Translations under genes and position numbers: made by a program | Assembly (NCBI GenBank): GCA_024650005.2 | Contig: CP122380.1 | Span: forward strand, 192,001-256,000 | Reading direction: 5' to 3' | DNA: 64,000 bases | DNA from: Candidatus Bathyarchaeum tardum | Lineage (GTDB): Archaea; Thermoproteota; Bathyarchaeia; Bathyarchaeales; Bathyarchaeaceae | The notes under the pieces: generated by a model | The model's database searches: none | What the model was told of the DNA's origin: nothing | What the model saw: the letters and a program-made list of their open reading frames with translations, nothing else | In this document: one piece after another, positions 11,085-58,676 of the stretch | Layout of the letters: every line of letters starts with the position of its first letter | Numbering within the stretch: the first letter of the stretch is position 1

Positions 11085-12048
11085 ACTGAAAAGAGATTAC
11101 GACCTAGACGAACTGGCACGCAGTCACGGCTTTGACGTTCGGCAGATTGAAAAAGTATGCAGAATTTCTGATGTCCTAGAAGATATTTCAGCCATAAAAT
11201 TCCTAAGAGACCGACTCTCCCTTTACGGTGGAACCGCACTTACATTTATTCACTCTGAAAAGATAACTCGACTTTCTGTCGATTTAGATTTCAACTATCG
11301 GGACTTGGACGAAAAAGACTGGGGTGAAACCCGAAAAGACATCGACACGAAAATGAAAGAACTGCTTTACAGGCAAAAATATAACCGCTCTCACCTAGCT
11401 ATAAATGCAAGTTACCCCTTAGCGAGAATTACTGTAAGCTATATCAACACCCTTGGAACAAATGACAACTTCAAACTCGAAATAGGATACATGCGCAGAA
11501 CACCCATCCTCAAAACCGAATCAATTGAAGAATTCCGGCATATAGGCACACAAGAAACATATCCAATAAAAACTCCAACAAAAGAAGAACTCTTCGCAAA
11601 CAAATGGTGTACCCTTCTTTACCGAGGAACACCAAGAGATCTCTTCGATGTCTACCAAATATCCAAAAACAAAATAAATTTTGAAACATTCCGAAAATGC
11701 TCCATTGTAGACAGCTTAATGCGCGGAAAAACAGAAATCCATAAACTTAACATAGAAAAAATACTTGAACCAATAAACTTGGACTCCAACCTAAGAAACG
11801 TATTACAGACAGAGATGCTTTCAAAACTAGACATCAACGAAATGAAAGAAAAAGTCAAAGAATTCAGCCAAAAAACACTAGAAACATTAACACAAAATGA
11901 AATTAAAGCAATTGACCACTTTAACCGACTACAACAATTCGAACCAAGCTTAATCGATGAAAAAAGAATCTTTCACCCCAACATAAAAAACCACCCTGGC
12001 ATACAACGATCACTACAAAAACTATCAACAAATAAAAAACAAACTTAA
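11023..12048 (+). CDS. Nucleotidyltransferase toxin, AbiEii/AbiGii family (start may be CTG 11086)
   Basis: LYGGTAL...RLSVDLDF, ANK..TL..R...RDLFD. Confidence 0.88.
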   Translation: MTEDGNCIFQKIFKKNYEGFKLKRDYDLDELARSHGFDVRQIEKVCRISDVLEDISAIKFLRDRLSLYGGTALTFIHSEKITRLSVDLDFNYRDLDEKDWGETRKDIDTKMKELLYRQKYNRSHLAINASYPLARITVSYINTLGTNDNFKLEIGYMRRTPILKTESIEEFRHIGTQETYPIKTPTKEELFANKWCTLLYRGTPRDLFDVYQISKNKINFETFRKCSIVDSLMRGKTEIHKLNIEKILEPINLDSNLRNVLQTEMLSKLDINEMKEKVKEFSQKTLETLTQNEIKAIDHFNRLQQFEPSLIDEKRIFHPNIKNHPGIQRSLQKLSTNKKQT

Positions 12049-24354: not shown

Positions 24355-24459
24355 TAGTACGTGTGGTAACAAATGACTGAAGCTCGAGCCGCCAAAAACA
24401 TTTACGAATCTGAAGAGGCAATGTGAGGGATTACTATCAAAGGCGATTTAGACCTATTT

Positions 24460-25137
24460 TTGATGATTCTGGAAAACCCCACACGAAGAGATATCATAAA
24501 ACGTCTCAGCGAGGAACCAAATTACTCCCTTCAGTTGGCAAAAGATTTAGGCCTAGGTCAACAGCTGGTTGCAAAACATCTGCGGATAATGGAAGAAGCT
24601 GGAATGGTGGCATCTTCTGTTGAAGCCAGTCCCCTTGGTCCCAAACGCAAAATCTACACCCTGGACAAGAACGTTTCTGTTACTTTGGATGTTTCCCGAC
24701 ATTTTTTCAAGGCCAAAGTTGTATTTTTTGACTCTGAGCCTGAACGAGAAGAAATCTCTGATACTTCTGCTTCTCTGATGGATAAAATGGACCAAACCCT
24801 GGAACGTCCAAAACAGTTTGAAACCATCACACCTTTTACCAGTATAATTTCTGAAATAGATAAACAACTAGAATCCTTGGAGAATGAACGTGCAATTTTG
24901 TTGTATATCAGAAATTTTGCAATGAAAGAAGCTTCCCACATCGTTGAGTTATTCACGAATCCTGATACAAGAAGAATCATCCGTTACGCTTTAGATGAAC
25001 ATGACATCAGCGTGAAAAGCATCTCTGAATCCCTAAATTTGAGGGAAACTATTGTTCGTCAGGCATTATCAAAATTGAAACAGAGTTTTAATATTGGAGT
25101 TGAAATTGTTGACGAAAACCCAAAAGAAAACCAGTAA
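24460..25137 (+). CDS. ArsR/HSR1-like heat-shock regulator (true start likely upstream, ~24430-24436)
   Basis: ILENPTRRDIIKRLS..P.Y..QLA..L...QQ.V.KHL..ME..G, GP.RK.Y; first gene of grpE-dnaK-dnaJ. Confidence 0.85.
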   Translation: MMILENPTRRDIIKRLSEEPNYSLQLAKDLGLGQQLVAKHLRIMEEAGMVASSVEASPLGPKRKIYTLDKNVSVTLDVSRHFFKAKVVFFDSEPEREEISDTSASLMDKMDQTLERPKQFETITPFTSIISEIDKQLESLENERAILLYIRNFAMKEASHIVELFTNPDTRRIIRYALDEHDISVKSISESLNLRETIVRQALSKLKQSFNIGVEIVDENPKENQ

Positions 25138-37970: not shown

Positions 37971-38287
37971 TTTCTATGACAAAAACTTGAATAACAATAA
38001 TAGGTATAACGTTTATGCACATAAGATTTGTTCCATATTTCGTTTTTAAATCTGATTCAGAATTACACTGAATTTTTAAACATTAATTTTTTTACCATTT
38101 GTATTGACTCAAAATAAGTCCAAAACTTAATTGCTTGAATTGCGCCGATTTCTTTGTTACAAGTATTTTCTGTAAAAACTGTGACCTTACATGAGTTAAA
38201 GAAACTAATCTGTTTTTGTTGGTGCCAACAACTGTTTTATTGAGTTTTAACAGAAGATACTTCATGTAACATAATGAGGGGTTTGGG

Positions 38288-38845
38288 ATAGCAGACAAAA
38301 TTGTTGTTGGGCTTGCTGGGATGCCGGGAGCAGGTAAGGGTGTTTTTCGGAAAACTGTTCAAAGGTTAGGGCATCCTGTTGTTACCATGGGCGACGTAGT
38401 TCGAGCAGAAGTAAAAAGACGAAACCTCAAAGCAACCCCTGAAAACATGGGCAAAGTAATGCTTAACTTACGAGAGTTAGATGGACCTGCTGCCATTGCT
38501 AAACAATGTATTCCAGCATTGAAGCAAACAACTGGAAAACTTGTTGTTATTGACGGAATCCGTAGCCTTGTTGAAGTTGATGAATTCAAGAAGCATTTTG
38601 CTGATTTTGTTTTGGTTGCTGTTCATTCTTCTCCTAAGACAAGATTTAAACGCCTAGTTAACAGAAAACGAAGTGACGATCCCCCTGATTGGAACACGTT
38701 TATGGACCGAGATCTTAGGGAACTTGGGATTGGAATGGGGTCTGTTATTGCAATTGCGGATTACATGATAGTAAATGAGGGAAGCATAAATCATTTGAAG
38801 AACAGAATTAATCAGTTAATTAGTAGGGTGCTTAACGATGACTGA
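38288..38845 (+). CDS. P-loop NMP kinase / archaeal dephospho-CoA-kinase-like (UPF0200); inferred ATA start 38288
   Basis: KIVVGLAGMPGAGK, MGDVVR, IDGIRS..EV, RDLREL..G; first in-frame ATG (38321) lies inside Walker A. Confidence 0.88.
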   Translation: MADKIVVGLAGMPGAGKGVFRKTVQRLGHPVVTMGDVVRAEVKRRNLKATPENMGKVMLNLRELDGPAAIAKQCIPALKQTTGKLVVIDGIRSLVEVDEFKKHFADFVLVAVHSSPKTRFKRLVNRKRSDDPPDWNTFMDRDLRELGIGMGSVIAIADYMIVNEGSINHLKNRINQLISRVLNDD

Positions 38846-39263
38846 TGTGCAGATTCGTGTTGATGCTGAAGTTAATCAAACAGAAGACTTAGAAAAGGTA
38901 AAAACTGCAGTTGAAAACATGTTTGGTCCTTTGGATTTTGAAGTAAAAGACAAACTCTGGGGTCAACTACTCACCGTACGGATTACTGGGACTCAAGGCT
39001 TAACTAAGCTATCTAATTTGCTTAAACGTGAGCAGATTCTTGCAGCTGCGCGAAAGGTTCTTCGTAACTGCATTGACAACAATTCTATAACGTTTTATCT
39101 TAACAAGCAAGTAGCCTATGCTGGACATGTTTCTTTTTCCCAACAAAGCCATGAATCCCCATTGGGACCAATCACCGTCAAAATTGACTGTGATGACCCC
39201 AAAAAACTAGTAAACTGGCTTGCCCCTCGAACCATAAAGCAAAGTTCCTCACGCAAAAAATAG
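38838..39263 (+). CDS. DUF54 / UPF0201 RNA-binding-like protein
   Basis: TEDLEKVK.AV.N.F, I..AARK.L, LNKQVAY.G.VSF, SPLGPI, WLAPRT. Confidence 0.85.
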   Translation: MTDVQIRVDAEVNQTEDLEKVKTAVENMFGPLDFEVKDKLWGQLLTVRITGTQGLTKLSNLLKREQILAAARKVLRNCIDNNSITFYLNKQVAYAGHVSFSQQSHESPLGPITVKIDCDDPKKLVNWLAPRTIKQSSSRKK

Positions 39264-39278
39264 CTGTAGTGTTTAGGG

Positions 39279-40969: not shown

Positions 40970-41047
40970 AGTTGTATACTCCCGTTTTCTTTACAAATAG
41001 TATATTATATGTTTTTTAGGTTTATTTGATTACGCCTTCAAGGCTTG

Positions 41048-42079: not shown

Positions 42080-42090
42080 GAAATTGGCAC

Positions 42091-44243: not shown

Positions 44244-44307
44244 GCCTCTGATAAACTCAGTTTACTTTTAACGGAATCGCATATGAATCTATCTGAGCAC
44301 CCGGTAT

Positions 44308-45213
44308 TCACGTTCTTTCAATGCAAGAAATGTAATATACAATATCGTTAGTGAATTTCCCCCAATTATTTGCGATTTTTCTGACTTGAGTCTCTGTAAG
44401 CAATTTATTGTCTGAATAAAAGTTTGAAACTGTCCGCCGAACCCCAAGATCTCCAGCAGGAATAGCAGTACTTCTTTTCAAACCCGCAAACAAAACCATC
44501 TCAGCAGTCCATGTTCCTACGCCGTGAAAGTGTTTTAATGCTTCAGTTACTTCAGCGTTTGAAAGCAAAACTAAACCTTCGGCATCAAACTTGTTGTTAG
44601 TTACTTGCTGAGCTATTTCTTTAATACACTGAGCTTTGCGCCAACTCACTCCACATTTTCTGATTTCTTGAAGGCTTATTTTAGTAAACTTTTCTGGCGT
44701 TGGAAAATCGTAGTAAATTAGGTCATTTACTTTAATGCTGTCTCCGAATCGGGTTACCATCTTGTTAGTAATAGAATAAGCAACTTTGATTGAAATTTGC
44801 TGCTGAATTATCGACTTAATGAAACATTCAAAAACAGTAATCCCAAAACCTGCAGCTTTCAAACCCACAAACTGATTTTTCAAGTCAGCAATTTCCTTGT
44901 TTTGTTCCATAAACTTGTAAAGTTCAGTTAAGTCTTGACTAAACGAAAAAATGTTATCCAGTTTCTCTGTCAAATCCTGTTTTTCTTTCGCATCTAATTT
45001 TTCACCAAAATATTGCAGCTCAATTTTTGGGTCTTGAATTGTACCTTTTGACAGTAATGATACTGGAACAAGTTTTCCTGAATCTAACTTTACGGCACGT
45101 CTCCAAATGCTTTCATTGTAGACTTCTGGCATAGGTTTTTGGTATCCAAATACTCTGCAGTTCAGATCGAAATCGAAGGGTGCCTTCGGATAAATGAAAA
45201 AATTTTGAAACAT
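44308..45213 (-). CDS. alkA: DNA-3-methyladenine glycosylase II (AlkA family)
   Basis: SIIQQQIS, FPTPE, HhH GVGTWTAE, PAGDLGV. Confidence 0.9.
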   Translation of the reverse strand: MFQNFFIYPKAPFDFDLNCRVFGYQKPMPEVYNESIWRRAVKLDSGKLVPVSLLSKGTIQDPKIELQYFGEKLDAKEKQDLTEKLDNIFSFSQDLTELYKFMEQNKEIADLKNQFVGLKAAGFGITVFECFIKSIIQQQISIKVAYSITNKMVTRFGDSIKVNDLIYYDFPTPEKFTKISLQEIRKCGVSWRKAQCIKEIAQQVTNNKFDAEGLVLLSNAEVTEALKHFHGVGTWTAEMVLFAGLKRSTAIPAGDLGVRRTVSNFYSDNKLLTETQVRKIANNWGKFTNDIVYYISCIERT

Positions 45214-45246
45214 CAGATATGTTTCCTCAATTATTTGAATAGTTAA

Positions 45247-45501
45247 TTATTCACTCCATGCTTGGTTAGAGAATTCGATTGCATGCAAAATTTTTTGTTT
45301 GAAATCTGAATCTTCACATTCGAAGGAGTACATTACAAATCCATCAAAGGCGAAAAAGTACATTCTGCCTGTTTGGTAGATTATTTTTGGTTTGGCGATT
45401 TCTACCAGTTCTAAAAACTGTTTTCTTTTGAATTTAACCCGATATGAGCTGGTGTGTTGTGCTGCAATAACTGCCGCTGTGGTTACTCCTGCTGTTGCCA
45501 T
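45247..45501 (-). CDS. Hypothetical protein
   Basis: ATG preceded by GTGAGG SD; 84 aa. Confidence 0.65.
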   Translation of the reverse strand: MATAGVTTAAVIAAQHTSSYRVKFKRKQFLELVEIAKPKIIYQTGRMYFFAFDGFVMYSFECEDSDFKQKILHAIEFSNQAWSE

Positions 45502-45642
45502 TCTTTTTTAACCTCACAAAATATTATTATTCATTTCTGGTATAGTTTTTTCCCTTTTTTTGGATAATTTGACCCGAAACCCTTTTTCCAGCATCTATCT
45601 TTATATATTAACATATGAACATGAACTGAAAAGGCGAGAAGT

Positions 45643-45849
45643 ATGAGATATTGCCCTGAATGTGGTGGCGAACTACATTACGTGTCCCTTACAAAGCGTT
45701 ACGTTTGCAAGAGCTGCGGTCTTTCTCTGACTCCCCAAGAACTTTATGAGTTGCGCGAAAATAATCGACCAACTTACGAAACACCTGAGGAGCAAAAACA
45801 ACAACAGAGAAAGGATTACCTGAAGTGGTACCTCAGCAAGAAAAAATAA
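45643..45849 (+). CDS. Zinc-ribbon small protein
   Basis: CPECGG...YVCKSCG; C-terminal DYLKWYL. Confidence 0.8.
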   Translation: MRYCPECGGELHYVSLTKRYVCKSCGLSLTPQELYELRENNRPTYETPEEQKQQQRKDYLKWYLSKKK

Positions 45850-45981
45850 GCATTGATAAAACTTAATGTTTTGAAAGAAAACCTAGCATACATGCTTTTT
45901 GGTAGCATTTTTATTCATTAAACAAAGCAGTTATCTTTTCGTTTTCAATTATTACTCAACAGTTTCTAGGTTAGGATCACT

Positions 45982-46809
45982 ATGAATCAATCTGTGGAAA
46001 TAATCTGTGTTGGAAACGAACTTCTTATCGGCAAAACCTTGAATACAAACGCTCAATGGTTAACAAAACGAATCACAACCTTGGGTTTACTCGTCAAACG
46101 GGTTACTGTTGTGGGCGACAACCTTTCTGATATATCAATGGCAATAAAAGAAGCAATCCAACGCAAGCCCTGTTATGTTATAATCACTGGTGGGTTGGGT
46201 CCAACCTTTGATGACATGACCCTAGAAGGACTAGCCAAAGCCTTAAACCGCCAAACCAAAGTTGACGACCAAGCTTTGCAAATGGTTGCAGAAAAATATC
46301 GTATGTACGCAAAAGATGTCAAGATAAATGAAATTGAGTTAACTCCCCATCGTTTAAAGATGGCCAAAATTCCTGTAGGCTCTACAGTTGTTCGTAATCC
46401 AATGGGGACCGCTCCTGCAGTAAAGTTTGAACATAAAAACATTACCATATTTGCCCTTCCCGGGGTGCCCTCTGAAATGAAAGGCATATTTGAAGAATCA
46501 ATTGCTCCGTTACTCAAGAATGCTGGTCAAGGAATGAACTTTTTTGAAACCAGCATAGTTTCTACAAATGTTATGGAGTCAGAAATGGCACCTTTTATTG
46601 ATGTTGCAATGAAAGACAACCCTTATGTTTACATAAAATCTCATCCCAAAGGAACTGAAACCTCATCTTTCATTGAGTTTCATCTTTCCTCCACCGACAA
46701 AGATGCTGATGTTGCCAAAAATCGTGTTAACAAGGCCCTTGCTCATCTCAAAGAACTGATTCAGAAACGAGGTGGAACAATAATAACTACCCTGCCTGAT
46801 GATTTTTAA
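45982..46809 (+). CDS. CinA N-terminal-like / MoCF-binding domain protein
   Basis: VGNELLIG..LNTN, TGGLGPT.DD.T, N..GTAP, LPGVP.EM, YIKSHP. Confidence 0.9.
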   Translation: MNQSVEIICVGNELLIGKTLNTNAQWLTKRITTLGLLVKRVTVVGDNLSDISMAIKEAIQRKPCYVIITGGLGPTFDDMTLEGLAKALNRQTKVDDQALQMVAEKYRMYAKDVKINEIELTPHRLKMAKIPVGSTVVRNPMGTAPAVKFEHKNITIFALPGVPSEMKGIFEESIAPLLKNAGQGMNFFETSIVSTNVMESEMAPFIDVAMKDNPYVYIKSHPKGTETSSFIEFHLSSTDKDADVAKNRVNKALAHLKELIQKRGGTIITTLPDDF

Positions 46810-46887
46810 CTCTTCGAAACAGACAACAATTATATCCTCTGATGAAAATAAGACCTTCATGTATGTTTAGTGTTGGTTGGTGTTTGA

Positions 46888-47649
46888 GTGGTCATAATTT
46901 TTCTTATTGGAACTGCTGGGTCGGGCAAGTCTCTTCTTACTGCGTCTTTGAATGAATTGCTCAAAGTCCAAAAACAAAAATCAATTACAGTAAACTTGGA
47001 TCCAGGTGTTTCAAACCTGCCCTATAAACCAGATATCGATATCAGAAACAAAATTGACATTAACCAAATCATGGAAGAATACCAACTTGGACCCAACGGC
47101 GCCTTGGTTCTAGCTTCAGACCTTATAGCAGAAGAAGCCGCAACCATCGGAGGTGAAATCGAAGATTTCCAATCAGATGTTGTTCTGGTGGACACCCCTG
47201 GGCAAATGGAGTTGTTTGCTTTTCGAGCAAGTGGACCCTATATTGCAAACGAATTAACATCTGAACAAAAAGCAATCGTGTACCTTTTTGATTCTGTGTT
47301 TTCTTTTAATCCTCTGAATTATGTTTCAAACATGTTCTTGGCCTCTGCAGTGTATAACAGGTTCTTTTTCCCACAGTTGCATGTGCTTTCAAAATGTGAT
47401 CTGTTGCCTCCTGAAGAATCGGAACGGATTGTTGAATGGTCCCTAGACCCAGAAATGCTTGAAACAGTAATCGAAGAAACTCTCGAAGGAACCCGTATGC
47501 TTTTGAGCCGAGACATGGTTCACGTTATTCACCGTTTGGGGCTAGATTTTCAGTTGGTGCCTGTGTCTGCAAGGACTAATTATGGAATAATTGAGCTAAA
47601 CTCTGCGCTGGAACGAATTCTGGTGGGTGGCGAAAAGTTTACTATGTAA
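46888..47649 (+). CDS. GPN-loop GTPase
   Basis: GTAGSGKS, NLDP, LGPNG, DTPGQME. Confidence 0.95.
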   Translation: MVIIFLIGTAGSGKSLLTASLNELLKVQKQKSITVNLDPGVSNLPYKPDIDIRNKIDINQIMEEYQLGPNGALVLASDLIAEEAATIGGEIEDFQSDVVLVDTPGQMELFAFRASGPYIANELTSEQKAIVYLFDSVFSFNPLNYVSNMFLASAVYNRFFFPQLHVLSKCDLLPPEESERIVEWSLDPEMLETVIEETLEGTRMLLSRDMVHVIHRLGLDFQLVPVSARTNYGIIELNSALERILVGGEKFTM

Positions 47650-47842
47650 CTTTCTATTTCGTAAAGTTCTGAAAGATTAAAATATGGTGAACATAAAATA
47701 ATTGCATCAAACCTTTGGAACTAGATTTTTTATTTTTTATTGGTATATAATAAGATTTGTGTTTTTTTGTGTATTTAAATCATACATGTGTTAAACATTT
47801 ATGCATAATGTTTATATTTCACACTATTATGAATTTGTAACT

Positions 47843-48328
47843 ATGATGAAAAAAAGAATGCTCAGACTCTTGTTTGAGCTTATGAAAAACGCTAAACGAA
47901 GCGACAGGGAAATCGCAAAAATCATCGGAGTCTCCCAGCCAACCATTACACGAATGCGACAACGGCTCGAAAAAAAAGCCATAGTCGATTACACCGTAAT
48001 TCCCGATTGGACCGAATTGGGTTTTGAAATCATGGCAATGACCTTGGTCAAAGCCAAAGGCTCAGTTGAAGTAACTGAAAAAGCAAAGAAATGGGCTATG
48101 GAAAACGCTAACGTTGTTTTCGCAGCAAGCGGTGAAGGCTTTGGAATGGATTTCTCGGTTTTGTCTTTCCACCGTAACTATTCCGGATACTCCAAATTCG
48201 TTGACGAACTAAAAGCACAACTCGCAGACAACATCCAAGACGTACAAAGCTTCCTGATGGCAACTGACAAAGAACGCACCCTAAAACCCCTCTCCCTCAA
48301 ATACCTTGAAAAAGCAGCAGAAGAATAA
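47843..48328 (+). CDS. Lrp/AsnC family regulator
   Basis: KNAKRSDREIAKIIGVSQPTITR HTH; RAM-like C-terminus. Confidence 0.88.
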   Translation: MMKKRMLRLLFELMKNAKRSDREIAKIIGVSQPTITRMRQRLEKKAIVDYTVIPDWTELGFEIMAMTLVKAKGSVEVTEKAKKWAMENANVVFAASGEGFGMDFSVLSFHRNYSGYSKFVDELKAQLADNIQDVQSFLMATDKERTLKPLSLKYLEKAAEE

Positions 48329-48634
48329 GACTAAACAACGCACAAAGGCGTTGTTAACGTCCATTTTTTTCTTTTTTTAGAACTTTTCTTATGCTTCTGA
48401 TTTTTCAGAAAAAAGCTTGTTTTGGAAGTTTAACCTCCGGAAAAATTAAAAATCATATTAAAATTTGAGATTACGGGAATTTAATTTTTCACCGAAGTTA
48501 TTCTTGGAAAATAAAACTGTTCTATAATGTGAAAATAACTGATTACCTGGTAGATTACAAAACTATAATACTGAATCGACTAACTTAAATTAATAAAAAA
48601 CAGTATTTGTATAAAACACCCGAAATGTGGTTCA

Positions 48635-51600
48635 ATGTCACAATTTAATGAAATATTATCTGATAAAATAAAGTATTGGAAATGTCGGTTAATTGACTTG
48701 TCTCGTCGAAATAACCTAATTTCTTATCGTTTCACTAAATCAAAAAGCGTTTTAGTTTCTGCTCCAAACATATCTGGTGTATTTGATGCAATCGATGAAA
48801 ATAATGTAATCCTTTTTCAAAAAACTGATGATGTTGAGGATCAAACTAAAGGTTGGATTTCGTCTGAGGATGATTCAACAACTAATAAAAAACTATACAA
48901 CATCTATTTAAAAGCACGAGAAAACTTTCAGGAATTAGGTGTTAATACCTGCTTTTTGGGAATAGGATTTTTAGAATACAAAGATAGTGAATGGTCTACA
49001 GATTTAATTAAAGCACCATTAATTTTAATGCCTGTAGAAATTGAGCGAACAAAAAAAGTTTCAAAGTTTTACCATAAATTTGATATTTTCTCAGAACCGG
49101 ATGATTTTCAACTAAATCCTTCTTTAAAAGAAAAATTAGCGGCAGAGTATGGAATAAACTTAGAAGAAATTGAAGAAGGTACAGACATTTACGAATATCT
49201 AGATCAACTAAAACAGATTATTAGCCAACATGAAAACTGGAAGTTTCTTGAAGAAGTAGTTCTAGATATTTTCACCTACCAGAAATACATTATGTATAAC
49301 GACCTTGAATTAAATGACGAAAACATCAAAGAAAACCCATTAATTCGAGCGTTTGTAGGAGACAGAAATGCATTACTGGGCGATTATTCCGAAATACTTC
49401 GGGAAGAATTTAATGATGTTACTGATGTTGATGTGTTCAGTGCAGATTCTTCTCAAAAACGTGCAATTGAATTGGCTAAAGCAGGTGCAACATTTGTTCT
49501 CCAGGGACCGCCAGGAACAGGAAAAAGTCAAACAATATGCAACATAATTGCTGCATTAATTGAAAAAAAGAAGAAAGTTCTCTTTGTTAGCCAAAAAATG
49601 GCTGCATTAGATGTTGTTTTAAATAGATTGAAAGAAAAAGGCTTGGACAGGTATTGTCTTAATCTGCACGCTTATAGAGGAAATAAAAAGCAGATCATTG
49701 CTCAATTAATGGATCAGCTAGAAAATTCTCCAATAATCAAAGATTATGCAAAACAATATTCATTTTCAAGTTATCTAAAAGCTCAATCAAAAATTAATGA
49801 TTACTACAAAAATCTATGTGAAAAAAGGGTTCTGCGAAAGCTTTCCTTATTTGATGTACGTGGAAAACTTGCAAAACTAGAAGATACTCATAACCTGAAT
49901 GCTCAACTTTCAAATACACTTAACATTAATGATGAGGAATTTTTGAATCTTATCGATAATATGGAAAAGTTAGATATCATCCTAGATTCAGTTGTAGATC
50001 CTCTAAATAATCTGTACCGTTACTATAAACCAATTTTTAATACTACATATCAGCGGGCCAATCTAAAAAATGATCTTAACAATATGTTAACCTCTTTTGA
50101 AATATTATTCAACTATGTAAACTCATTGCCCATCATGAATGATGAGAATAAACCAAATACTTTCAAAGAAATGGATTTGTTTATAGAAAATCATGAAAAA
50201 ATAAACGCTTTAAAAATTCCAATCGAATTGTTATCCGACAACTTTTTCACATACCATAAATTGTTGAAAGAGATCTTTCCAATTTTTGAGAGAATCAATG
50301 AAATTAAAAGTGAAATTACATCACAGGTATCTGAAAAATTTCTTGAAATGGATACATCTGAACATCAAATTTTGCTCACAGAAACAGGCTTATTTGGCAA
50401 ACTTTTCAGCTCAAAATATAAAACTGCAAAAAAAGAACTTGATGAATTAGCGAATACACCCTTAGAAAAAAACAATTGGTTAAAGTTATTTGATAAAAAA
50501 GCCAAATTCATGGAAAACGTGGATTCATTTAATTCAATAATTCAAACAAATATTACTGTTTTTCAAAAACTAAAAATTATCGACAATCATGAAATAATTC
50601 CTGTTTTGCTTGAACTTACAACTAAAATATTAAAAATTATTGATCAATTTGATTTAGACCAGCAAACTTCACTGAATATTATACAATTTATGAAAACTAA
50701 TTCGTGCATATTTACTGAATATTTAGAGATTAAAAATAGCTTGAAGATTTTGGAGGATTATTTTGAAAATCTGAAACTTGTTGATTATGGATTCGATCAA
50801 ATTCCAGAAATTATTAAGAAATTGATTAAAGATCACGATAAAATAGACTATATCCTGTTATTTTACAAAACATTCAATGAATTGTCTACTGAATTAATGA
50901 CATTCGTGAAATTATATCTTGAAAATAGAAAAGTAGGTTCCCTGCAAAAATGTTTTGAAAAAACATATTATCTCCAATTACTTGACAAAATAGAGCGTTC
51001 AGATAGAATTTTTTCACCCAAATTACAGATTGAACAATTTAGAAACAAAGATGTTGAAACACGTAACATAAAACGATTCAAAATAATGAACACTATTGAG
51101 TCATCTCAGCCTTCGTATACTTATGACAGCTGTAGCAATAGTGAGGTTCAAATATTAAAGCGTGAAAACAGAAAGAAAAGAAGAGTAAAACCTATTCGAA
51201 AGCTATTACAAGACATCCCAAATCTAACTTTTTCATTAACACCTTGTTTTATGATGAGCCCTCTGACCGTTAGTCAGTACTTAGATTATCCTCACATACA
51301 TTTTGATGTGGTAATCTTTGATGAAGCATCACAAATAATGCCTGAAGATGCAATTCCTTGTTTTCTTAGAGCAGATCAGGCAATAATAATGGGTGACACC
51401 GAACAATTGCCACCCACCAGTTTTTTCAATCGGGGTCTTGATGATGAAGACTTTGATGAAGACATAGTGGATCTTGAAAGTCTATTATCTGAAGCAAGTA
51501 TAAAATTCCGAGAAAGCTCCTTGAATTGGCACTACAGAAGCAAAAATGAAAACCTCATTGCTTTTTCAAATTACTGCTTTTATAAAAACAGATTAATTAC

Positions 51601-53146
51601 ATTTCCAAATTCAAAGCAAGATGCAGAAACAGGGATAGATTTTGTATTTGTTAAAAATGGCGTATATGATAGAGGAAAATCAAGAACAAACAGAAAAGAA
51701 GCAAAAAACGTGGTTAGCACATACAAAAAATTAAAGAAAGAAAATCCCTCCAAAACCTTTGGAATAATTGCCTTCAGCAGACAACAGGAAAGAGCAATTA
51801 GAGATGCTTTTCTACTAAAAAACATTGACATTGACAACTCAATAGACGATATGGACGAGCCTTTGTTCATAAAAAATCTTGAAACTGTTCAAGGGGACGA
51901 ACGAGACATTATAATCATAAGCGTCGGTTATGGACCTGATGAAAAAGGCAAATTTAGTTATAACTTTGGACCTCTAAATAAAGAAGGGGGATACAAACGG
52001 CTAAATGTTGCAGTAACACGATCAAGGTACAAAACAATAATTATTTCCTCAATTGATCCTCAATTCCTTGATGAAGACAAAATCAATGTAGATGGCGTAC
52101 GATATCTGAAAAACTATCTAAGTTTTGCAAAAACTTCACAAATGCCTGAACTTACAAAAACCATTGAGGGCATAGAATTTGATTCTGATTTTGAGGAAGC
52201 TGTATATGACGCACTAAAAAATGAAAATTTTGAACTGATTACACAAATAGGGTGTTCAGGGTACAGAATAGATTTAGGTATCAAAAATCCCGAAAAACCT
52301 GGTGAATATATACTGGGAATAGAATGTGATGGGACCCAATATCATTCATCCAGGTTTGCACGAGATAGAGATAAAATTAGACAAAATGTCTTAGAAAAAT
52401 TAGGTTGGAACATTCATCGAATATGGTCTGAAGATTGGCTCAAAAATAGAGAATTTGAGATACAAAGGATAAAAACAAAAGTTGAGCAATTATCTGTTAC
52501 TCCTATAAAAGAAAGTAAAAAAAAAGAACACTTCGAGAGAGTAGAAACAGTAAATCATTTTAAAGAAGTATGTTTTGATGATATTTTTCCGAAATATACC
52601 GTGAAAGAGCTCCAAAAAATTGATTTTGATCTTGAATGGTCAAGTTCCAGAGGATATTGGTTTTATGACAATAATCTCTTGATATTAGAACGAATGCTTG
52701 ACGTTATTAATATTGAAGCGCCAATGACAAAAACATTGTTATTCCAAAGAGTTAGTAAATCGCTCTCCATTGGAAAAATAGGTAATAGATTGAATAATTA
52801 TTTTGAAATGTTGCTGGAGTTGTTAGAGCGAAAAGAGTATTTGTTTAATAACGGTTCAACTCTTTCAACTAAACCCATAAAGAAATTGGAAAGAATTAGA
52901 ATTTCAAATTCTAAACAACGAAGATTTGAATGCATTCCAATAGAAGAATTAGCTTCAGCCTGCGTTGAATTATTGAAAATAAATGTTAGCATGGAAAAAG
53001 ATGGGTTAATTCAGGATGTAGCTAGAAAATTTTATGGAAATAATAGATGTGGAACTAAAATAGAGAAAAAAATGAATGAAACAATCAGTTATCTAAAGAA
53101 AGAGAAAATTATTATAATTCATGGGAATAACATTAAGCTAAAATAA
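48635..53146 (+). CDS. DUF4011 - SF1 (Upf1/DNA2-like) helicase - Vsr/REase - DUF3320-like protein (Hhe-type defence)
   Basis: W...LIDLSRRN.L, QGPPGTGKSQT, DEASQ, HYRS, ETVQGDERD, RLNVAVTR, DSDFE..V...YRIDL...GIECDG..YH...RD..RQ..LE..GW. Confidence 0.88.
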   Translation: MSQFNEILSDKIKYWKCRLIDLSRRNNLISYRFTKSKSVLVSAPNISGVFDAIDENNVILFQKTDDVEDQTKGWISSEDDSTTNKKLYNIYLKARENFQELGVNTCFLGIGFLEYKDSEWSTDLIKAPLILMPVEIERTKKVSKFYHKFDIFSEPDDFQLNPSLKEKLAAEYGINLEEIEEGTDIYEYLDQLKQIISQHENWKFLEEVVLDIFTYQKYIMYNDLELNDENIKENPLIRAFVGDRNALLGDYSEILREEFNDVTDVDVFSADSSQKRAIELAKAGATFVLQGPPGTGKSQTICNIIAALIEKKKKVLFVSQKMAALDVVLNRLKEKGLDRYCLNLHAYRGNKKQIIAQLMDQLENSPIIKDYAKQYSFSSYLKAQSKINDYYKNLCEKRVLRKLSLFDVRGKLAKLEDTHNLNAQLSNTLNINDEEFLNLIDNMEKLDIILDSVVDPLNNLYRYYKPIFNTTYQRANLKNDLNNMLTSFEILFNYVNSLPIMNDENKPNTFKEMDLFIENHEKINALKIPIELLSDNFFTYHKLLKEIFPIFERINEIKSEITSQVSEKFLEMDTSEHQILLTETGLFGKLFSSKYKTAKKELDELANTPLEKNNWLKLFDKKAKFMENVDSFNSIIQTNITVFQKLKIIDNHEIIPVLLELTTKILKIIDQFDLDQQTSLNIIQFMKTNSCIFTEYLEIKNSLKILEDYFENLKLVDYGFDQIPEIIKKLIKDHDKIDYILLFYKTFNELSTELMTFVKLYLENRKVGSLQKCFEKTYYLQLLDKIERSDRIFSPKLQIEQFRNKDVETRNIKRFKIMNTIESSQPSYTYDSCSNSEVQILKRENRKKRRVKPIRKLLQDIPNLTFSLTPCFMMSPLTVSQYLDYPHIHFDVVIFDEASQIMPEDAIPCFLRADQAIIMGDTEQLPPTSFFNRGLDDEDFDEDIVDLESLLSEASIKFRESSLNWHYRSKNENLIAFSNYCFYKNRLITFPNSKQDAETGIDFVFVKNGVYDRGKSRTNRKEAKNVVSTYKKLKKENPSKTFGIIAFSRQQERAIRDAFLLKNIDIDNSIDDMDEPLFIKNLETVQGDERDIIIISVGYGPDEKGKFSYNFGPLNKEGGYKRLNVAVTRSRYKTIIISSIDPQFLDEDKINVDGVRYLKNYLSFAKTSQMPELTKTIEGIEFDSDFEEAVYDALKNENFELITQIGCSGYRIDLGIKNPEKPGEYILGIECDGTQYHSSRFARDRDKIRQNVLEKLGWNIHRIWSEDWLKNREFEIQRIKTKVEQLSVTPIKESKKKEHFERVETVNHFKEVCFDDIFPKYTVKELQKIDFDLEWSSSRGYWFYDNNLLILERMLDVINIEAPMTKTLLFQRVSKSLSIGKIGNRLNNYFEMLLELLERKEYLFNNGSTLSTKPIKKLERIRISNSKQRRFECIPIEELASACVELLKINVSMEKDGLIQDVARKFYGNNRCGTKIEKKMNETISYLKKEKIIIIHGNNIKLK

Positions 53147-53243
53147 TAACAAATTTTTTGATTTTTATTTTCATCATTTATGGTTCGTAAAGCATTAATA
53201 CAACTTATTTACGAAGTTTTCGTTAAAACGAGTTGGGATTAAA

Positions 53244-54209
53244 ATGAGTTTCAGTGAAAAGGAAGTTTATCAAGGTTTGTTATATTATTACTCGACCAAA
53301 TATCCGAATAATCCCAAAACCATTTTAGAAAATGATATACTGGCAGAAATTAAGTCTGGCAAAACAAGAAAGTTAGCAATTGAATCATTATTTGCTCAGA
53401 CGTTTCAAAAAGATATGTCGGAATTGAAAGATTTAGCCAAATCAAGTCCAAGCAAGCAGAATAATTATCGTGTTAAATCCATGTTCACTCGAGAAGAAAT
53501 GGAAAATTTTGGCAGCAATATACTAAACAAAAAATCAAAAGGAAAAAGCCCAACTTTTAAAAAAATTAGTAAAGTGAAGAAGTATCCTAAAGGATACTAT
53601 TTGCATTTACTCGCTCTTGATGAAGTAAGTGGATATTATAGAAGTGAAGGCGATCCCAAATGGTGGGAAAAAAGAGCGGGAAAAGATTACACTTGCACAA
53701 TTTGTCACAGATCGATTCCTAAAACCACCCGATACATTGGACAACAGATGCTAAAGCCAGGTAGAAAGGGCATATATGGCTACAAAGGAACGTACACAAC
53801 TAGATATTATCATATTATTTGTATTTTAAAGCAAAAAAAAGGTATTCTTCAAGCAAACATATCAAAGTTGGAAAATGAAATACAATCTTTGGAGCAGAAA
53901 ATTGAAGATTTACGAAGAGAAATTTCAGTAAATGAAGTGGGAATTTATAAAAATATTGAAATTATTAATAAAAAAAGGCAAGAATGTACAGAAGCAGGTT
54001 TTTTTGGTAAAATTAGCAAAAAAATCCATTTATTTTTTGATGAACGATTACTTACTAATCAAAATAACAAAATGAAAAAAATTATTTTCAAAATAAAAAA
54101 TGAAACAATTCCAACATGTGAACTCAAAATTAAAAAATCTGTCAATCTAAAAAATGCTACTAAACAATCGTTAAGACAAATAAGCGAAACTATTGAAGAT
54201 ATAATCTAA
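53244..54209 (+). CDS. Hypothetical basic protein with CxxC...HxxC finger and coiled coil
   Basis: CTIC...YYHIIC; heptad-rich C-terminal half; AT-rich like upstream gene. Confidence 0.7.
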   Translation: MSFSEKEVYQGLLYYYSTKYPNNPKTILENDILAEIKSGKTRKLAIESLFAQTFQKDMSELKDLAKSSPSKQNNYRVKSMFTREEMENFGSNILNKKSKGKSPTFKKISKVKKYPKGYYLHLLALDEVSGYYRSEGDPKWWEKRAGKDYTCTICHRSIPKTTRYIGQQMLKPGRKGIYGYKGTYTTRYYHIICILKQKKGILQANISKLENEIQSLEQKIEDLRREISVNEVGIYKNIEIINKKRQECTEAGFFGKISKKIHLFFDERLLTNQNNKMKKIIFKIKNETIPTCELKIKKSVNLKNATKQSLRQISETIEDII

Positions 54210-54216
54210 AGTTGTA

Positions 54217-54438
54217 TCAACAAGCTTTAAGGATGTTAAACATCACGTTCAACATGAAAGTCCTTATGATTTTAAAAGGCCACAAATAACTAAAAGACTT
54301 TTTCATATTTGTTAAAAATCTGGACACTTTCTCTTTTTTGATGGTTTCTTCTTCATTTTTTGTATGTGCAAAAGTAACCTGAACCAGTAAACAAATTATC
54401 CCAAGCAAAACAACAACCCTTACAGCTTTACTTACCAT
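54217..54438 (-). CDS. Small secreted/membrane hypothetical protein
   Basis: Signal-peptide-like N-terminus; overlaps stop of upstream beta-helix gene. Confidence 0.5.
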   Translation of the reverse strand: MVSKAVRVVVLLGIICLLVQVTFAHTKNEEETIKKEKVSRFLTNMKKSFSYLWPFKIIRTFMLNVMFNILKAC

Positions 54439-55682
54439 TTACTGCAACCAACTTTTTTGGACAGCCTTTTTCGACACAAAAAAGCAACCAAAGTTATGCT
54501 TAAAAACAAAGGCAAAACAAGCCATGATGGAAATTCTGGTATTTCGTTAGATATTTCTTGTTCGAGTTCAGGGTCGTTATTGTTGACGGTGCTATTGTTT
54601 GAATCTCCTTTGACTCTTATGGGTAAGACTTTGTTTTTGGTTATTGCGTTTTCAACGATGTATGCGTTTGGGCAGTCATACAAACTAATGTCCACTTCTT
54701 GGTTGTTTGTTACAATGTTTTTTGTAATGCTTGTGTTCCAAGCTCCCCATGCATAAATGCCGTCGTTTGTGTTTTGTGTTATGTTGTTTTTGGTAATCAC
54801 GTTATTGAAGCAGCACTCATATGAGCCTTGAAACGCAATGCCATAGTAATTATTTCTTAGATGATTTCTTGTTATTACTGAATTGTTTGTGGCGACAAGG
54901 AGTATTCCTTGGCTGTTGTTGGTGAGAACAAAGTTTTCGACAGTTATGTTTGTGCAGTTTACAAGAGCCACATATCCCGTGTTGACTGGCACGGTTTTGT
55001 TTTTCTCGTTAACCCAGTAAGTTATGGATTTCCCATTTATCGTGTTTGAATCATCTATGTCGCTGATGTAGGAGCTCATGTGGCTAGATGTTTCGCAGTC
55101 TATCCACAAGTTGTAGGTATTGTTGCTTAGCTGATTGTTTCTAAAAACATAAGATGGACAGTGATGAATGAAAACGCCGTATGTGTTGTTTGCTATGATG
55201 TTTTCCTCAAGATAATTATTTTTTGAAAAAATCATTGATTTTATTCCATAGGTATTGTCTGTTAGGCTATTTTGGGACAGTGTAATGTTTGTACAACCAG
55301 CCAATGATTCTGCATACGTGAAATGGATGCCATGCCTGAAGTTCTTGATGTGCAGATTCTTTATTTCCACGCTGTTCTGGCCCTGCATCCAAATACCATT
55401 AAGACTTCCATTTCCTTGAAGGGTGTGACCAGCACCATCAATAACTATGTCGCTAGAAAAAACTACGATACTGCCTGCAATGTCTCCTGTAAACGTGTAA
55501 ACATTTCCGCTACGTTGAATCATATCTGTGCCATTTACTGATCCGTTTTCCGTAATTTCGATGCTGTGCTCGGGCACTGAAGCTGGAAAAAAGTTTGCAG
55601 AAACAAAACTGATAAACTGTGGACTAATGCATACTAAAACTAGCAAAGCGATTAACGTAACTGAACACAACAGCTTCTTCAA
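54432..55682 (-). CDS. Secreted NosD/CASH beta-helix protein with PEF-CTERM tail
   Basis: TTG 55682 signal peptide (LKKLLC...), IDGAGHTLQG, NN...N repeats, IPEFPSW-TM-RKR. Confidence 0.9.
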   Translation of the reverse strand: MKKLLCSVTLIALLVLVCISPQFISFVSANFFPASVPEHSIEITENGSVNGTDMIQRSGNVYTFTGDIAGSIVVFSSDIVIDGAGHTLQGNGSLNGIWMQGQNSVEIKNLHIKNFRHGIHFTYAESLAGCTNITLSQNSLTDNTYGIKSMIFSKNNYLEENIIANNTYGVFIHHCPSYVFRNNQLSNNTYNLWIDCETSSHMSSYISDIDDSNTINGKSITYWVNEKNKTVPVNTGYVALVNCTNITVENFVLTNNSQGILLVATNNSVITRNHLRNNYYGIAFQGSYECCFNNVITKNNITQNTNDGIYAWGAWNTSITKNIVTNNQEVDISLYDCPNAYIVENAITKNKVLPIRVKGDSNNSTVNNNDPELEQEISNEIPEFPSWLVLPLFLSITLVAFLCRKRLSKKVGCSKW

Positions 55683-55735
55683 GTTAACCAACCGTTTACT
55701 TAATTTCAAAATCAAAAAAGAATATAGCATTTTTT

Positions 55736-55751
55736 GTCAAAGTTTCTTGAC
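55736..55751 (-). promoter_or_regulatory. GTCAA-N6-TTGAC palindrome upstream of PEF-CTERM gene
   Basis: GTCAAAGTTTCTTGAC (exact reverse complement of the 21135 copy). Confidence 0.75.
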
Positions 55752-55945
55752 TAATGGGTTACTCAAAACAAAATTTTAACCAATCAAAGTGTTAAAACCA
55801 CGCGTTAGGTATTTGGGACGAACTCAAATTGGAACTGTTTTCTTCTATTTTTTCCAGAACCTTTTTTATTTCCTTTTTGTTATTTTGGTTTCCTTAGACG
55901 CGGATAGAAAGCCTTAATTTTAATGGCGTATCCCAAAAGCTGTAT

Positions 55946-56038
55946 GGGTCCGTAGCTTAGCAAGGAAGAGCAACTTGCGCCTAAAGCACCGGGCTTTTAA
56001 CCCGGGGGTCAGGGGTTCAATTCCCCTCGGACCCGCCA
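55946..56038 (+). tRNA. tRNA-Lys(TTT) with ~16-nt D-arm intron (22/23; ~55969-55984)
   Basis: GGGTCCG/CGGACCC+GCCA, CCGGG-CTTTTAA-CCCGG, AGGGG-TTCAATT-CCCCT; oversize D-arm resolves to GCTT/GAGC after removing AGCAACTTGCGCCTAA. Confidence 0.92.
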
Positions 56039-56046
56039 TAACTTTT

Positions 56047-57042
56047 CTAAACATTTAATATGTCTATTTTTTTGCCAATCTTTTCTTTCAAAGCTTTTTT
56101 GTAGACCACGTTTGCTGTTGCGGCATCTTGTATAGCAAGCCCAGTAGATGTGAAAACTGTAATTTCATCACTTGAAGTTCTGCCCTGTTTTAATCCTGCA
56201 ACAATTTCACAAATGTCGCCCCAGATGTCTTCTTTTGTGATTATTCCTTTCGAAATTGGAACATTAATTTCGCCCCCATGACTGCTCTGTTCCCACTCGT
56301 CCACAACGTTTTTGGATCTTAACAAAATGTTTGGATCTAACTCTTGTTTTCCTGGAGCATCTGCTCCAATACAATTAATATGGCTCCCTTGTTTCACCCA
56401 ATCTGACGAAACTAAAGGTTTTCTTGAAGGGGTTGTCGTTATAATTATGTCTGTTTCTTGTACTGCTTTTTTAACGCTTTCAACAACACAAATTTTTAGC
56501 TGAGGATATTTTTGCCTCATTTCTTCAACATATTTTTCTGACGCTTTGGGATTAATGTCCCACACGTTGACTTCTTGTATTGTCTTAAAGACTATTTGAA
56601 GCCCCATAAGTTGAGTTCTTGCTTGGGCGCCTGCACCAACTAATCCAACTATTTTTGGGCTAGGGTTAGCAAGATATTTTGCTGCGATTGCTCCTGCTGC
56701 TCCGGTTCGAAGGGCGGTAATCTTTGTTCCTCCCATTATCGCAACTGGTGCACCAGTTTTGGGGTCAACCAAAATTATTGTTGCCATAACGGTAGGCAGT
56801 CCATGTTTTGGGTTTTCTGGATGAGAATTCACAACCTTCACGGTTACTGCATCAATTTCTTCAAGGTATGCTGGCATGGTCCGCAAATCGCCGTTGTATT
56901 TTTTCATGAACAAATACTGTTTAGAAGGCATTTGGGCGTGACCTGTTCCCTTCATTTTAAATGCTAATTCTACAGCTGGGATTGTTTCATCAATTGAGAT
57001 TAGGTTTTTTATATCCTTTTCAGACAGAACTAAAGTTTTCGT
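56047..57042 (-). CDS. ala: Alanine dehydrogenase (ornithine cyclodeaminase/mu-crystallin family); inferred ACG start
   Basis: GDLR.MPAY, VKVVNSHPENP..GLPTV, T.LRTGAAG, GAGAQA, IGADAPGKQELD, STGLAIQD. Confidence 0.9.
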   Translation of the reverse strand, partial: TKTLVLSEKDIKNLISIDETIPAVELAFKMKGTGHAQMPSKQYLFMKKYNGDLRTMPAYLEEIDAVTVKVVNSHPENPKHGLPTVMATIILVDPKTGAPVAIMGGTKITALRTGAAGAIAAKYLANPSPKIVGLVGAGAQARTQLMGLQIVFKTIQEVNVWDINPKASEKYVEEMRQKYPQLKICVVESVKKAVQETDIIITTTPSRKPLVSSDWVKQGSHINCIGADAPGKQELDPNILLRSKNVVDEWEQSSHGGEINVPISKGIITKEDIWGDICEIVAGLKQGRTSSDEITVFTSTGLAIQDAATANVVYKKALKEKIGKKIDILNV

Positions 57043-57119
57043 GTTGATTGCCTCCTGAGTACTTAATCTGTGATTTTAGTTTAATGTTACCGTGCTCCTT
57101 ACTCTTTGTCAACGTAAAA

Positions 57120-58676
57120 CTAAACAGTTCTAGTTGGTACCTGTTTTTGGTTCAACCCTGAAAGGGTTAACAATGGCTTTAACACTTTTTTGCCGTGTTT
57201 CCACCTGTAATACAAAACATACGCAAATGCTGAAACAACCCGTGCTGGCCATTGGGAAAGGTCTGGGGCAAAAATTTCTATGTTGTTCCTCCAACATGTT
57301 GCCAAAAGTTCCCATTGAAGGGGCGTTAATTGTTTCAGGTCCATGTGTTGTGCCTTTCTAAGGTTGCACTCCTCTTCGGACGTGAACAGCAACGGGACAT
57401 AGAACAGTTTATTGTGTTTTAGTTGATTTACAAGCTCAATGGTAGCGTTTGTGTCATCTTCGGTTTCGCCAGGCAACCCAACAATAAACGTCGCTAACGG
57501 CCAAATGCTGTTTTGGTTCATGATGTCAATAGATTTTGTTACTATGTCTTGCCACTCTTCGGGCTTGAATGGAAAAACTTTTCTCGGCATATATTTTTTC
57601 ATAAGGCGAAAGCTGCCCGTTTCTATTCCTACTTCGATGGAGCTGTGTTTTATGCCACTCGTAACCCAGTACGATTTTTCAAGAAGGACTGGTCCAATTT
57701 CTCGAATCATTTCTGGTTCACACACAACTGGTGCTAACGCAGCATGGGCAGGTTGAATGAATTCTACTTTTGGAATTTTTGCTATTGAATTAATCAGTTC
57801 AGAAACTGCTTGGCGGTTTGGCCTGAAGTTGTCTTTGCATTTGTATAGGAAGATGTCTTCACTTGCCAAGATTATCATCCGGGTTCCATGCTTGGCATTT
57901 ATTTCAACCTCTCTTAGAATGTGTTCTAATGGAAAAGAATACCGTTTCCGAATCATGGGGGAACAAAACTTACAGCCTCGTCCGCAACCACGGGTAATTT
58001 CTACTGTGCCAAATATTGCTGGATTTACTATTGGACAGATTTCTTTCGGGTCTGGGGCTTGAGTTTCCACAAATTTTGGAAGTTCTTCACCCTTTAGTGC
58101 CTTGCGAAAAATTTCTAGTGCAGTTTTTTCTCCCTCTCCCATTACTATGCAATCGATTTGATACTTTTTTTGAAGTTTAGCCCTGTGAATTTGCCATGCG
58201 CCTGCTCCTCCCAGAACAATTTTTGCGTTCCATTTTCGCAGTATTGGGTTTGTTATTAATTCCCTGAATTCTGCGGCTGCCACGGGTTCCCCTCCAAAAC
58301 CTACCAGAGACGTGTATGTTCGGCTCACAAATCCTATTCCTACAGGTTCCATGGTTGATATTCCAATAATTTTTGTGTTTGGTCCAACCACTTTTTTGAG
58401 ATCATATGGGTGAACAACTGCTACATGTTCTGATCCAAACTCGTTAATCAATGAAGCTTCAATTTTGCGCATTCCGTAGGGCACAAACTTGGCGGTGTTG
58501 TTTCCGTTCATTGGCGTTTTTGGGTACCAATATTTTCGTAACATAAACCTTGGAATGATTGCAGTTGGAAACCCTCCAGAAAACGCCCTAAAAGGATTGA
58601 GTTTAAAATCACTCATATCAGTGGCAGACCCTGTTAAAACTATTGGAACCCCTTGCAGCTGACCATTGTTGGCCAT
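57120..58676 (-). CDS. B12-binding-like radical SAM protein
   Basis: EITRGCGRGCKFC CxxxCxxC; PYG.RKIEA.L; GIETGS; GLPGET. Confidence 0.9.
   Translation of the reverse strand: MANNGQLQGVPIVLTGSATDMSDFKLNPFRAFSGGFPTAIIPRFMLRKYWYPKTPMNGNNTAKFVPYGMRKIEASLINEFGSEHVAVVHPYDLKKVVGPNTKIIGISTMEPVGIGFVSRTYTSLVGFGGEPVAAAEFRELITNPILRKWNAKIVLGGAGAWQIHRAKLQKKYQIDCIVMGEGEKTALEIFRKALKGEELPKFVETQAPDPKEICPIVNPAIFGTVEITRGCGRGCKFCSPMIRKRYSFPLEHILREVEINAKHGTRMIILASEDIFLYKCKDNFRPNRQAVSELINSIAKIPKVEFIQPAHAALAPVVCEPEMIREIGPVLLEKSYWVTSGIKHSSIEVGIETGSFRLMKKYMPRKVFPFKPEEWQDIVTKSIDIMNQNSIWPLATFIVGLPGETEDDTNATIELVNQLKHNKLFYVPLLFTSEEECNLRKAQHMDLKQLTPLQWELLATCWRNNIEIFAPDLSQWPARVVSAFAYVLYYRWKHGKKVLKPLLTLSGLNQKQVPTRTV

Follow-up and report, generated by a model that had tools for sequence, protein, structure and literature searches.

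Single-mismatch codons (ACG, CTG, ATA, ATT or ATC) probably serve as start codons for a few dozen genes of Candidatus Bathyarchaeum tardum, core transcription and protein-folding genes among them. We estimate that such near-cognate starts head about 2–3% of the genes in this genome (G000), a single 2.15-Mb contig (C1) with 38% G+C. In the reading that we hold to be rather likely, these starts are real, a strong Shine-Dalgarno (SD) site compensates for the weak codon, and the tolerance is general to the SD-using archaea of the phylum. The alanine dehydrogenase gene of the window, by which we mean the whole stretch of 64,000 nt that was analysed (C1:192001-256000), appears to be one such gene. 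Features listed for G000 are given in window positions.

The alanine dehydrogenase start codon

On the minus strand, AGGAGG (57056-57051) is followed by a spacer of 8 nt (57050-57043) and then by ACG (57042-57040), exactly where a preliminary description of this DNA had placed them. This spacing falls within the SD peak of the genome, which lies at 7–9 nt for clean canonical starts.

56047..57042, minus strand: alanine dehydrogenase coding sequence, 331 aa (TIGR02371; PF02423)
57051..57056, minus strand: SD site AGGAGG of the alanine dehydrogenase gene, pairing with the genome's own 16S 3' end (-10.0 kcal/mol)
57040..57042, minus strand: ACG, inferred start codon, in the column of the start codon in 26 relatives
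57076..57078, minus strand: in-frame TAA, which rules out any start further upstream
56953..56955, minus strand: first canonical in-frame ATG, 29 codons into the conserved protein and the expected pick of common gene callers

The same description had held that no canonical start precedes the ACG in frame and that the protein opens with an N-terminus of the alanine dehydrogenase type. Both statements stand: the 11 codons between the stop (57078-57076) and the ACG include no ATG, GTG or TTG, and position 1 of the TIGR02371 model falls on residue 2 of the ACG-started protein. In a profile search, this protein scored 445.2 bits against TIGR02371 (cut-off, 409.15) over model positions 1–324 of 325, and the product of 56047..57042 is a predicted enzyme of the archaeal alanine dehydrogenase family. 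Starting at ATG 56955 would yield 302 aa as against 331 aa from the ACG, with the loss of 29 conserved residues. The region 57000-57120 is less structured than its shuffled versions (z=+2.1), and 198 of the 200 shuffles fold more strongly. The match to a sigma-70 promoter at 57112-57084 is without meaning, the host being an archaeon.

For the start column, 30 loci were cut, of which 3 were truncated, and 27 rows including G000 were compared. The 26 relatives hold ATG (15), GTG (4), TTG (3) or ATT (4); ACG is found in G000 only. Three ATT alleles of the genus have no upstream canonical codon, two of them with a stop three codons earlier; the order-level ATT allele is not forced because a GTG sits three codons before it. 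On a tree of 25 rows, 5 switches between canonical and near-cognate codons are needed, at least 4 of them forced by well-supported branches. Near-cognate alleles carry stronger SDs than ATG alleles (p=0.004), kin rows not being independent.

What else could place an ACG here? The start may have been lost, leaving a young pseudogene, a truncated protein made from ATG 56955, or a start at the neighbouring ATC 57048. Such a loss would fit the restriction of ACG to one of the 27 rows and the dispensability of the enzyme in the genus, where just 11 of 24 relatives have a match; the rules of translation table 11, whose starts are TTG, CTG, ATT, ATC, ATA, ATG and GTG and which lacks ACG, would moreover pick ATC 57048. 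However, the reading frame is unbroken and the protein clears the equivalog cut-off from residue 2 onwards; moreover, none of 697 clean starts shows the spacing of just 2 nt that separates ATC 57048 from the SD. A lost start also gives no cover for the single-mismatch starts of conserved core genes described below (rpoN, dnaG, prefoldin alpha and Alba), and we consider it very unlikely.

That the start codon is an artefact of sequencing or assembly has, in our judgement, a negligible probability. An error is one of the possible readings of a gene at G000:C1:1601136-1601530 (minus strand), which we take from sequence likeness to be RidA-like: its SD and TTG lie one base out of frame with the gene body at a run of six A, and this may mean that the gene is broken, that a base was miscalled or that frameshifting takes place there. 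Against an error at the ACG, a contig from run X1, possibly the source of this DNA, covers 38000-57400 with 0 differences and 0 gaps at a depth of 216, and independent genomes hold other non-canonical codons in the same columns. Run X3, of another study, covers both 38288 and 57042; it is silent on the ACG, as 57 of its 97 differences, the 7 in 55862-57400 among them, are known by number only. As far as the DNA can tell, the ACG start of alanine dehydrogenase is real.

A contig of run X3 joins across window positions 48313-55862 (7.5 kb, with a 1520-codon ORF and two more genes), beside a tRNA at 55946-56038, and over the same positions the depth of run X2 falls from ~4000 to ~900. This segment looks like a strain-variable island inserted at the tRNA. 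ARAGORN calls the tRNA 'Stop (tta)' with an intron, and its 3' part also matches other contigs; judged by its loop, a tRNA-Lys(UUU) whose intron lies in the D-arm is the more natural reading.

Probable near-cognate starts in the window and across the genome

Further near-cognate starts had been proposed in the window at ATA 38288, at ATT/ATC ~24430-24436 and at CTG 11086.

38276..38281, plus strand: SD-like GAGGGG of the P-loop kinase gene; most genus loci have a GAGG- or GAG-rich site in the corresponding position
38288..38845, plus strand: P-loop kinase (Pfam AAA_17/AAA_18) with an ATA start, from the Pfam match and the genus column
24436..25137, plus strand: ArsR-type HTH regulator with an ATC start, from GAGGG 24425-24429, in-frame TGA 24424-24426, family-profile matches and the relatives' ATG
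11086..12048, plus strand: AbiEii-family nucleotidyltransferase (PF08843) with a probable CTG start; GAGGG 11074-11078, TAA of the upstream gene 11082-11084, alternative TTG 11023

The first of these proposals is strongly supported by the start column of the genus. Among 23 usable kinase loci (24 cut, 1 truncated), we found ATA in 13, ATG in 8, TTG in 1 and an ATA shifted by one codon in 1, and 9 of the 13 ATA alleles are not preceded by any canonical codon. The first ATG falls inside the P-loop, 11 codons downstream of ATA 38288. ATT and ATC never occur in the column though they make up 70% of Ile codons; the column is therefore unlike an internal Ile. Four switches are needed on the kinase tree, at least 2 of them forced; SD compensation is absent from this family (p=0.36).

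For the second proposal, a near-cognate start is indeed present, at ATC 24436; ATT 24430 was dropped in its favour, the ATC column holding ATG in 6 of 8 relatives (the 2 others are distant and unaligned there). The regulator stands ahead of chaperone genes (window 24436-28691). Its close homologues are confined to 4 of 24 genus relatives, a hint of a heat-shock module with a patchy distribution. CTG 11086 is plausible from its GAGGG and from distant AbiEii homologues, 7 of 10 aligned ones having a canonical start at -1 to +2 codons from its column, but it is not forced because TTG 11023 lies in frame; no close relative was found in 151 genomes. The gene before it (10269-11081) has no Pfam or NCBIfam match at 1e-5, so that its 'AbiEi' label rests on its neighbour. 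A second AbiEi/AbiEii-like pair lies at G000:C1:348097-349496 (plus strand); the first gene of that pair may also start at a near-cognate codon (ATC). In sum, no canonical in-frame alternative would keep the conserved N-terminus at 57042, 38288 and 24436, and one would at 11086.

Core genes outside the window have near-cognate starts too. In dnaG, the start is ACG in 10 of 10 genus genomes; an in-frame TGA lies inside the SD itself, and the first canonical codon comes 18 codons inside. In each of 4 further genera of the family the column holds ATG, and 3 of 6 order-level genomes have ACG there, two of them lacking a canonical codon within 60 codons; in 3 class-level and 7 other-class genomes, a canonical codon stands at or near the start. 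Fixation of ACG is by itself no proof of selection for ACG over ATG because adjacent synonymous sites are also conserved. A DnaG cut to the first GTG (381 aa) stands in the protein collection. Prefoldin alpha starts with CTG in 8 and GTG in 2 of 10 genus genomes, and rpoN with ATT in 5, ATA in 3 and TTG in 1 of 9 genomes, an order-level genome having ATG. For Alba, read in G000 alone, the start is a CTG behind GGAGGTG.

Four Alba-like paralogues lie in G000 (C1:139605, 385477, 665846 and 1759894), one with a CTG start and another with a CTG beside a GTG. A further gene, G000:C1:1167992-1168261 (plus strand), presumably RNA polymerase subunit K-like (rpoK) by sequence likeness, has an apparent ACG start 22 codons ahead of its first canonical codon.

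How frequent are such starts? We used two methods. In the first, we took codons that precede the first canonical start and are linked to it by coding-like sequence, and compared near-cognate frequencies in SD-led and SD-less positions. For the 2073 predicted genes of G000, observed and expected numbers at three SD thresholds were 50 vs 29.0, 42 vs 19.3 and 24 vs 8.8 (p=2e-4, 2e-6 and 5e-6). An E. coli K-12 control (twelve 50-kb stretches, 526 predicted genes) gave no excess (1 vs 4.2, 0 vs 2.4 and 0 vs 0.5). Of 346 strong-SD ATG starts, this method would detect just 134 if they were mutated, so that an excess of ~23 would correspond to ~55–60 genes, near 3%.

In the second method, 563 ORFs of G000 were paired with sampled relatives and forced cases were sorted by hand. 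Eleven of the 563 were forced (2.0%; 95% CI 1.0–3.5%).

hisZ, ATC
hflX, ATA
rpoN, ATT
trm112, ATC
DUF359 dephospho-CoA kinase, ATT
TIGR00375-like, ATT
DUF1512, ATT
four genes without an assigned family: ATA, ATA, ACG and CTG

Hand sorting kept 9 of 38 raw rows, and 1361305 and 1611603 were added from other lists to give the 11. The 29 dropped rows overlapped neighbouring genes, lay antisense, broke frame or belonged to genes whose canonical start is good; they include eS24 (ATG), 46299-47180 (TTG) and 1359155-1359730 (ATG). The name hisS, given to one candidate, was replaced by hisZ. A pair test run automatically from the first canonical codon proved too noisy, and none of the counts depends on it. 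Because conservation of upstream DNA has other causes, its 13 'forced' G000 rows took in far-cognate codons and a stop.

SD sites at the usual spacing are commoner than chance before the near-cognate starts of G000. At 11 homology-found near-cognate starts, the median SD reached -9.3 kcal/mol vs -5.75 at 156 canonical ones (p=5e-5), a contrast that is inflated because the choice among neighbouring near-cognate codons partly used SD spacing. We rejected translational coupling as a general cause: among 17 starts with a computed gap, several lie within 20 nt of an upstream stop, but alanine dehydrogenase (77 nt), dnaG (101 nt) and others do not, and small upstream genes were possibly missed.

Behind SD sites, ACG and CTG are the most enriched codons, followed by ATA and ATC depending on the threshold; AAG and AGG show no enrichment in G000. 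Since ACG and CTG are each one C-to-U change from a canonical start, this ranking would fit mRNA editing, which would turn ACG into AUG and CUG into UUG so that the ribosome meets canonical starts. However, relatives hold ATT, ATA or ATC in the same columns (alanine dehydrogenase, rpoN, kinase and trm112), and such alleles are beyond C-to-U repair. ACG and CTG are also one transition away from ATG and TTG, which would account for their excess. We therefore regard editing as highly improbable, the ATH alleles sharing the start columns.

Lineage comparison and the initiation machinery

The preliminary description had inferred an unusually permissive, SD-driven start selection in this lineage. 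Relatives' columns, the genome-wide enrichment with its E. coli control and the stronger SD pairing uphold near-cognate, SD-driven start selection; the comparison with other lineages does not bear out that it is unusual. Controls were three genera (f16, f17 and f31) of other classes of the phylum, with two genomes each and 200 kb per genome. In the two SD-using genera, f17 and f31 (400 kb per pair), 3 of 192 pairs were forced (95% CI 0.3–4.5%), as against the 11 of 563 in G000 (Fisher p=1.0); the samples are small and the comparison is weak in both directions. Sorted by hand with the criteria applied to G000, f17 retained 2 genes, f31 retained 1 and f16 none; f16, which hardly uses SD sites, gave 0 cases in 124 pairs.

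L125:13546-14136, minus strand (G147, f17): tRNA-intron endonuclease, ACG behind GGTGAGG, in-frame stop just upstream
L136:5860-6447, minus strand (G153, f17): tRNA-intron endonuclease, ACG behind GGTGAGG, in-frame stop just upstream
L170:11194-14130, plus strand (G116, f31): leuS (leucine--tRNA ligase), CTG or ATT behind GAGGTGA, 51 codons without a canonical codon

The ACG of the endonuclease is conserved in both f17 genomes, and in both the first canonical codon comes dozens of codons inside. The second f17 case is the ATA start of a DUF460 gene. Two more CTG candidates in G147 (Clp1-like and DUF84) have no partner pair and stand outside the 3 of 192.

With the first method, pooled genus relatives gave 15 vs 10.8 (p=0.13, not significant), f17 gave 6 vs 4.7 (no significant excess) and f31 gave 8 vs 3.1 (p=0.015, at one threshold only). 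Near-cognate rates outside G000 are thus poorly measured, because the method is there mostly non-significant.

These figures bear on the reading of the preliminary description, namely that the starts are real and that the tolerance is special to Bathyarchaeia or to the genus through a laxer proofreading machinery. Several points favour it: (i) G000 alone has an excess at all three thresholds, amounting to 1.6–2.7 per 100 SD-led starts; (ii) dnaG, prefoldin alpha and rpoN are near-cognate across the genus, and dnaG has a canonical codon at or near its start in the class-level and other-class genomes examined; and (iii) the control samples cover just 400 kb per pair. The similar rate of forced cases in two other classes argues against it, as does an initiation machinery in which aIF1, initiator tRNA, KsgA, Kae1, Sua5 and the uS9 tail are all ordinary. 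On balance, we judge a tolerance special to the lineage unlikely.

The preliminary description had also pointed to aIF1, aIF2 and the initiator tRNA as places to look for substitutions. We found no lesion in aIF1 or in the initiator tRNA; aIF1A, aIF2 beta and aIF2 gamma are present and unremarkable on a plain reading of their sequences. We detected an aIF1 gene in 55 of 61 relatives, in each of the 33 high-quality genomes and in 150 of 151 phylum genomes. It starts with ATG in G000 and at every locus read (30 loci, 6 of them unread); autoregulation of the infC type through a poor start codon does not apply, therefore, to aIF1. Loop 1 of aIF1 in G000 is basic with an aromatic residue (K-W-G-K), as in control f17 (K-F-G-K); the Pyrococcus loop is R31-Y32-G-K34 in the accessible part of its description (PMC6237735). 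The initiator tRNA of G000 has A1:U72 and three G-C anticodon-stem pairs, and the anti-SD is standard. KsgA, Kae1 and Sua5 are present, and the uS9 tail ends in SYR. We thus found no loss or change in G000 of aIF1, KsgA, the t6A enzymes, the uS9 tail or the identity elements of the initiator tRNA.

TTG and GTG starts had been cited as part of the same pattern for six genes. Their names, pyrI, hsp20, nrpR, rnz, trm11 and dnaJ, are those of the earlier reader, which we take over as assigned from sequence likeness; all six first codons are there in the sequence. TTG makes up 33% of SD-led canonical starts in G000 vs 21–27% in the SD-using controls, and in Aeropyrum pernix it is given as 52% of starts in the text available (PMC5911459). 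Frequent TTG is therefore no peculiarity of the lineage.

Proposed mechanism and known systems

How might a near-cognate codon be used? What the DNA displays is a strong SD 7–11 nt upstream, in an unstructured leader, of a conserved protein that begins at ACG, CTG, ATA, ATT or ATC with no canonical alternative. Pairing at the SD would hold the small subunit with the near-cognate codon in the P site, where ordinary Met-tRNAi and aIF2 may accept one mismatch often enough to pass aIF1 proofreading. The product would begin with Met, probably at a lower yield than from AUG. Near-cognate codons would derive from canonical starts, in most cases through a single base change, and be tolerated at strong SDs; in some genes (alanine dehydrogenase and the kinase) the codon appears to switch back and forth, in others (dnaG) to be fixed genus-wide.

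In E. coli, AUA, AUC, AUU and CUG give 1–2% of the output of AUG, and GFP started from ACG mostly carries an N-terminal Met, according to the part of the report available (10.1101/063800). Archaeal efficiency is probably higher, because a yield of 1–2% seems poor for rpoN or Alba. In Sulfolobus, aIF1 destabilises non-AUG complexes, as the accessible text of PMC6237735 has it, which counts against an easy passage of near-cognate sites through proofreading.

Beyond this mechanism, we see as possible, although doubtful, a wider start code in SD-using archaea, in which CTG, ATA, ATT, ATC and ACG join ATG, GTG and TTG as the sole start of a few percent of genes, and in which the output of a genus-wide set tracks the stringency of initiation (levels of aIF1 or of the ternary complex). 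That set would be dnaG, rpoN and prefoldin alpha, together with Alba and the rpoK-like gene in G000; if true, it would give archaea an equivalent of the IF3 and eIF1 stringency circuits.

Genes obliged to start at ACG, CTG or ATH would be ready substrates for the trade-off between SD strength and aIF1 in the archaeal initiation complex, which among prokaryotic ones stands nearest to that of eukaryotes. The allelic series of the alanine dehydrogenase column (ATG, GTG, TTG, ATT and ACG) is a natural experiment. Ordinary gene finders shorten such genes because their starts are ACG, CTG, ATA, ATT or ATC, and an estimated 40–60 proteins of G000 are shortened or missed by standard callers.

A literature search, in whose coverage most subscription journals were not included, returned no paper on starts of this kind for Bathyarchaeia, nor any in which they are the sole starts of archaeal genes. 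The accessible text of one review gives archaeal starts as AUG, GUG and UUG only (PMC7531240), and another paper, in the part available, portrays aIF1 as guarding against non-AUG starts (PMC6237735). The closest bacterial parallels are infC and pcnB (ATT/ATA), Deinococcus dnaA (ATC) and rpsL (CTG), whose starts were proven by N-terminal proteomics according to the available part of PMC2830850. As here, a single-mismatch codon is there the sole start of essential genes, conserved in the genus and mis-annotated by callers. Unlike here, where we estimate 2–3% of genes, those cases are a handful, and ACG is not among the ones that the available text names (PMC2830850). The machinery differs as well, being aIF1/aIF2 here and IF3/IF2 in the bacterial cases, and a self-regulating case is absent here, the aIF1 gene starting with ATG.

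The pairing of a weaker start codon with a stronger SD is likewise familiar. GUG and UUG starts in prokaryotes are offset by stronger SD sites in the accessible part of one survey (PMC5622118); our data resemble that survey in this respect, and Aeropyrum pernix (PMC5911459) in the frequent TTG. Among 61,358 ancestral AUG starts, the same part of the survey reports 3 switches to CUG or AUU, with no mention there of ACG or AUA (PMC5622118); unlike in that account, switches to second- and third-position mismatches recur here within single gene families.

In ribosome profiling of Haloferax volcanii, archaeal ribosomes stalled at near-cognate codons, which made up ~30% of the putative alternative start sites; these sites are secondary and were set aside by the authors as possible false positives, as far as the available text goes (PMC7261190). 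Here, unlike in Haloferax, the near-cognate codon would be the only possible start of conserved genes, in an SD-using lineage. Initiation at ACG and CUG in eukaryotes and their viruses shows the same codon preference, in that CUG, ACG and AUH can be used and AAG and AGG work poorly, and its eIF1/eIF2 core is homologous; there, the start context is set by scanning and the Kozak context, and here by SD pairing.
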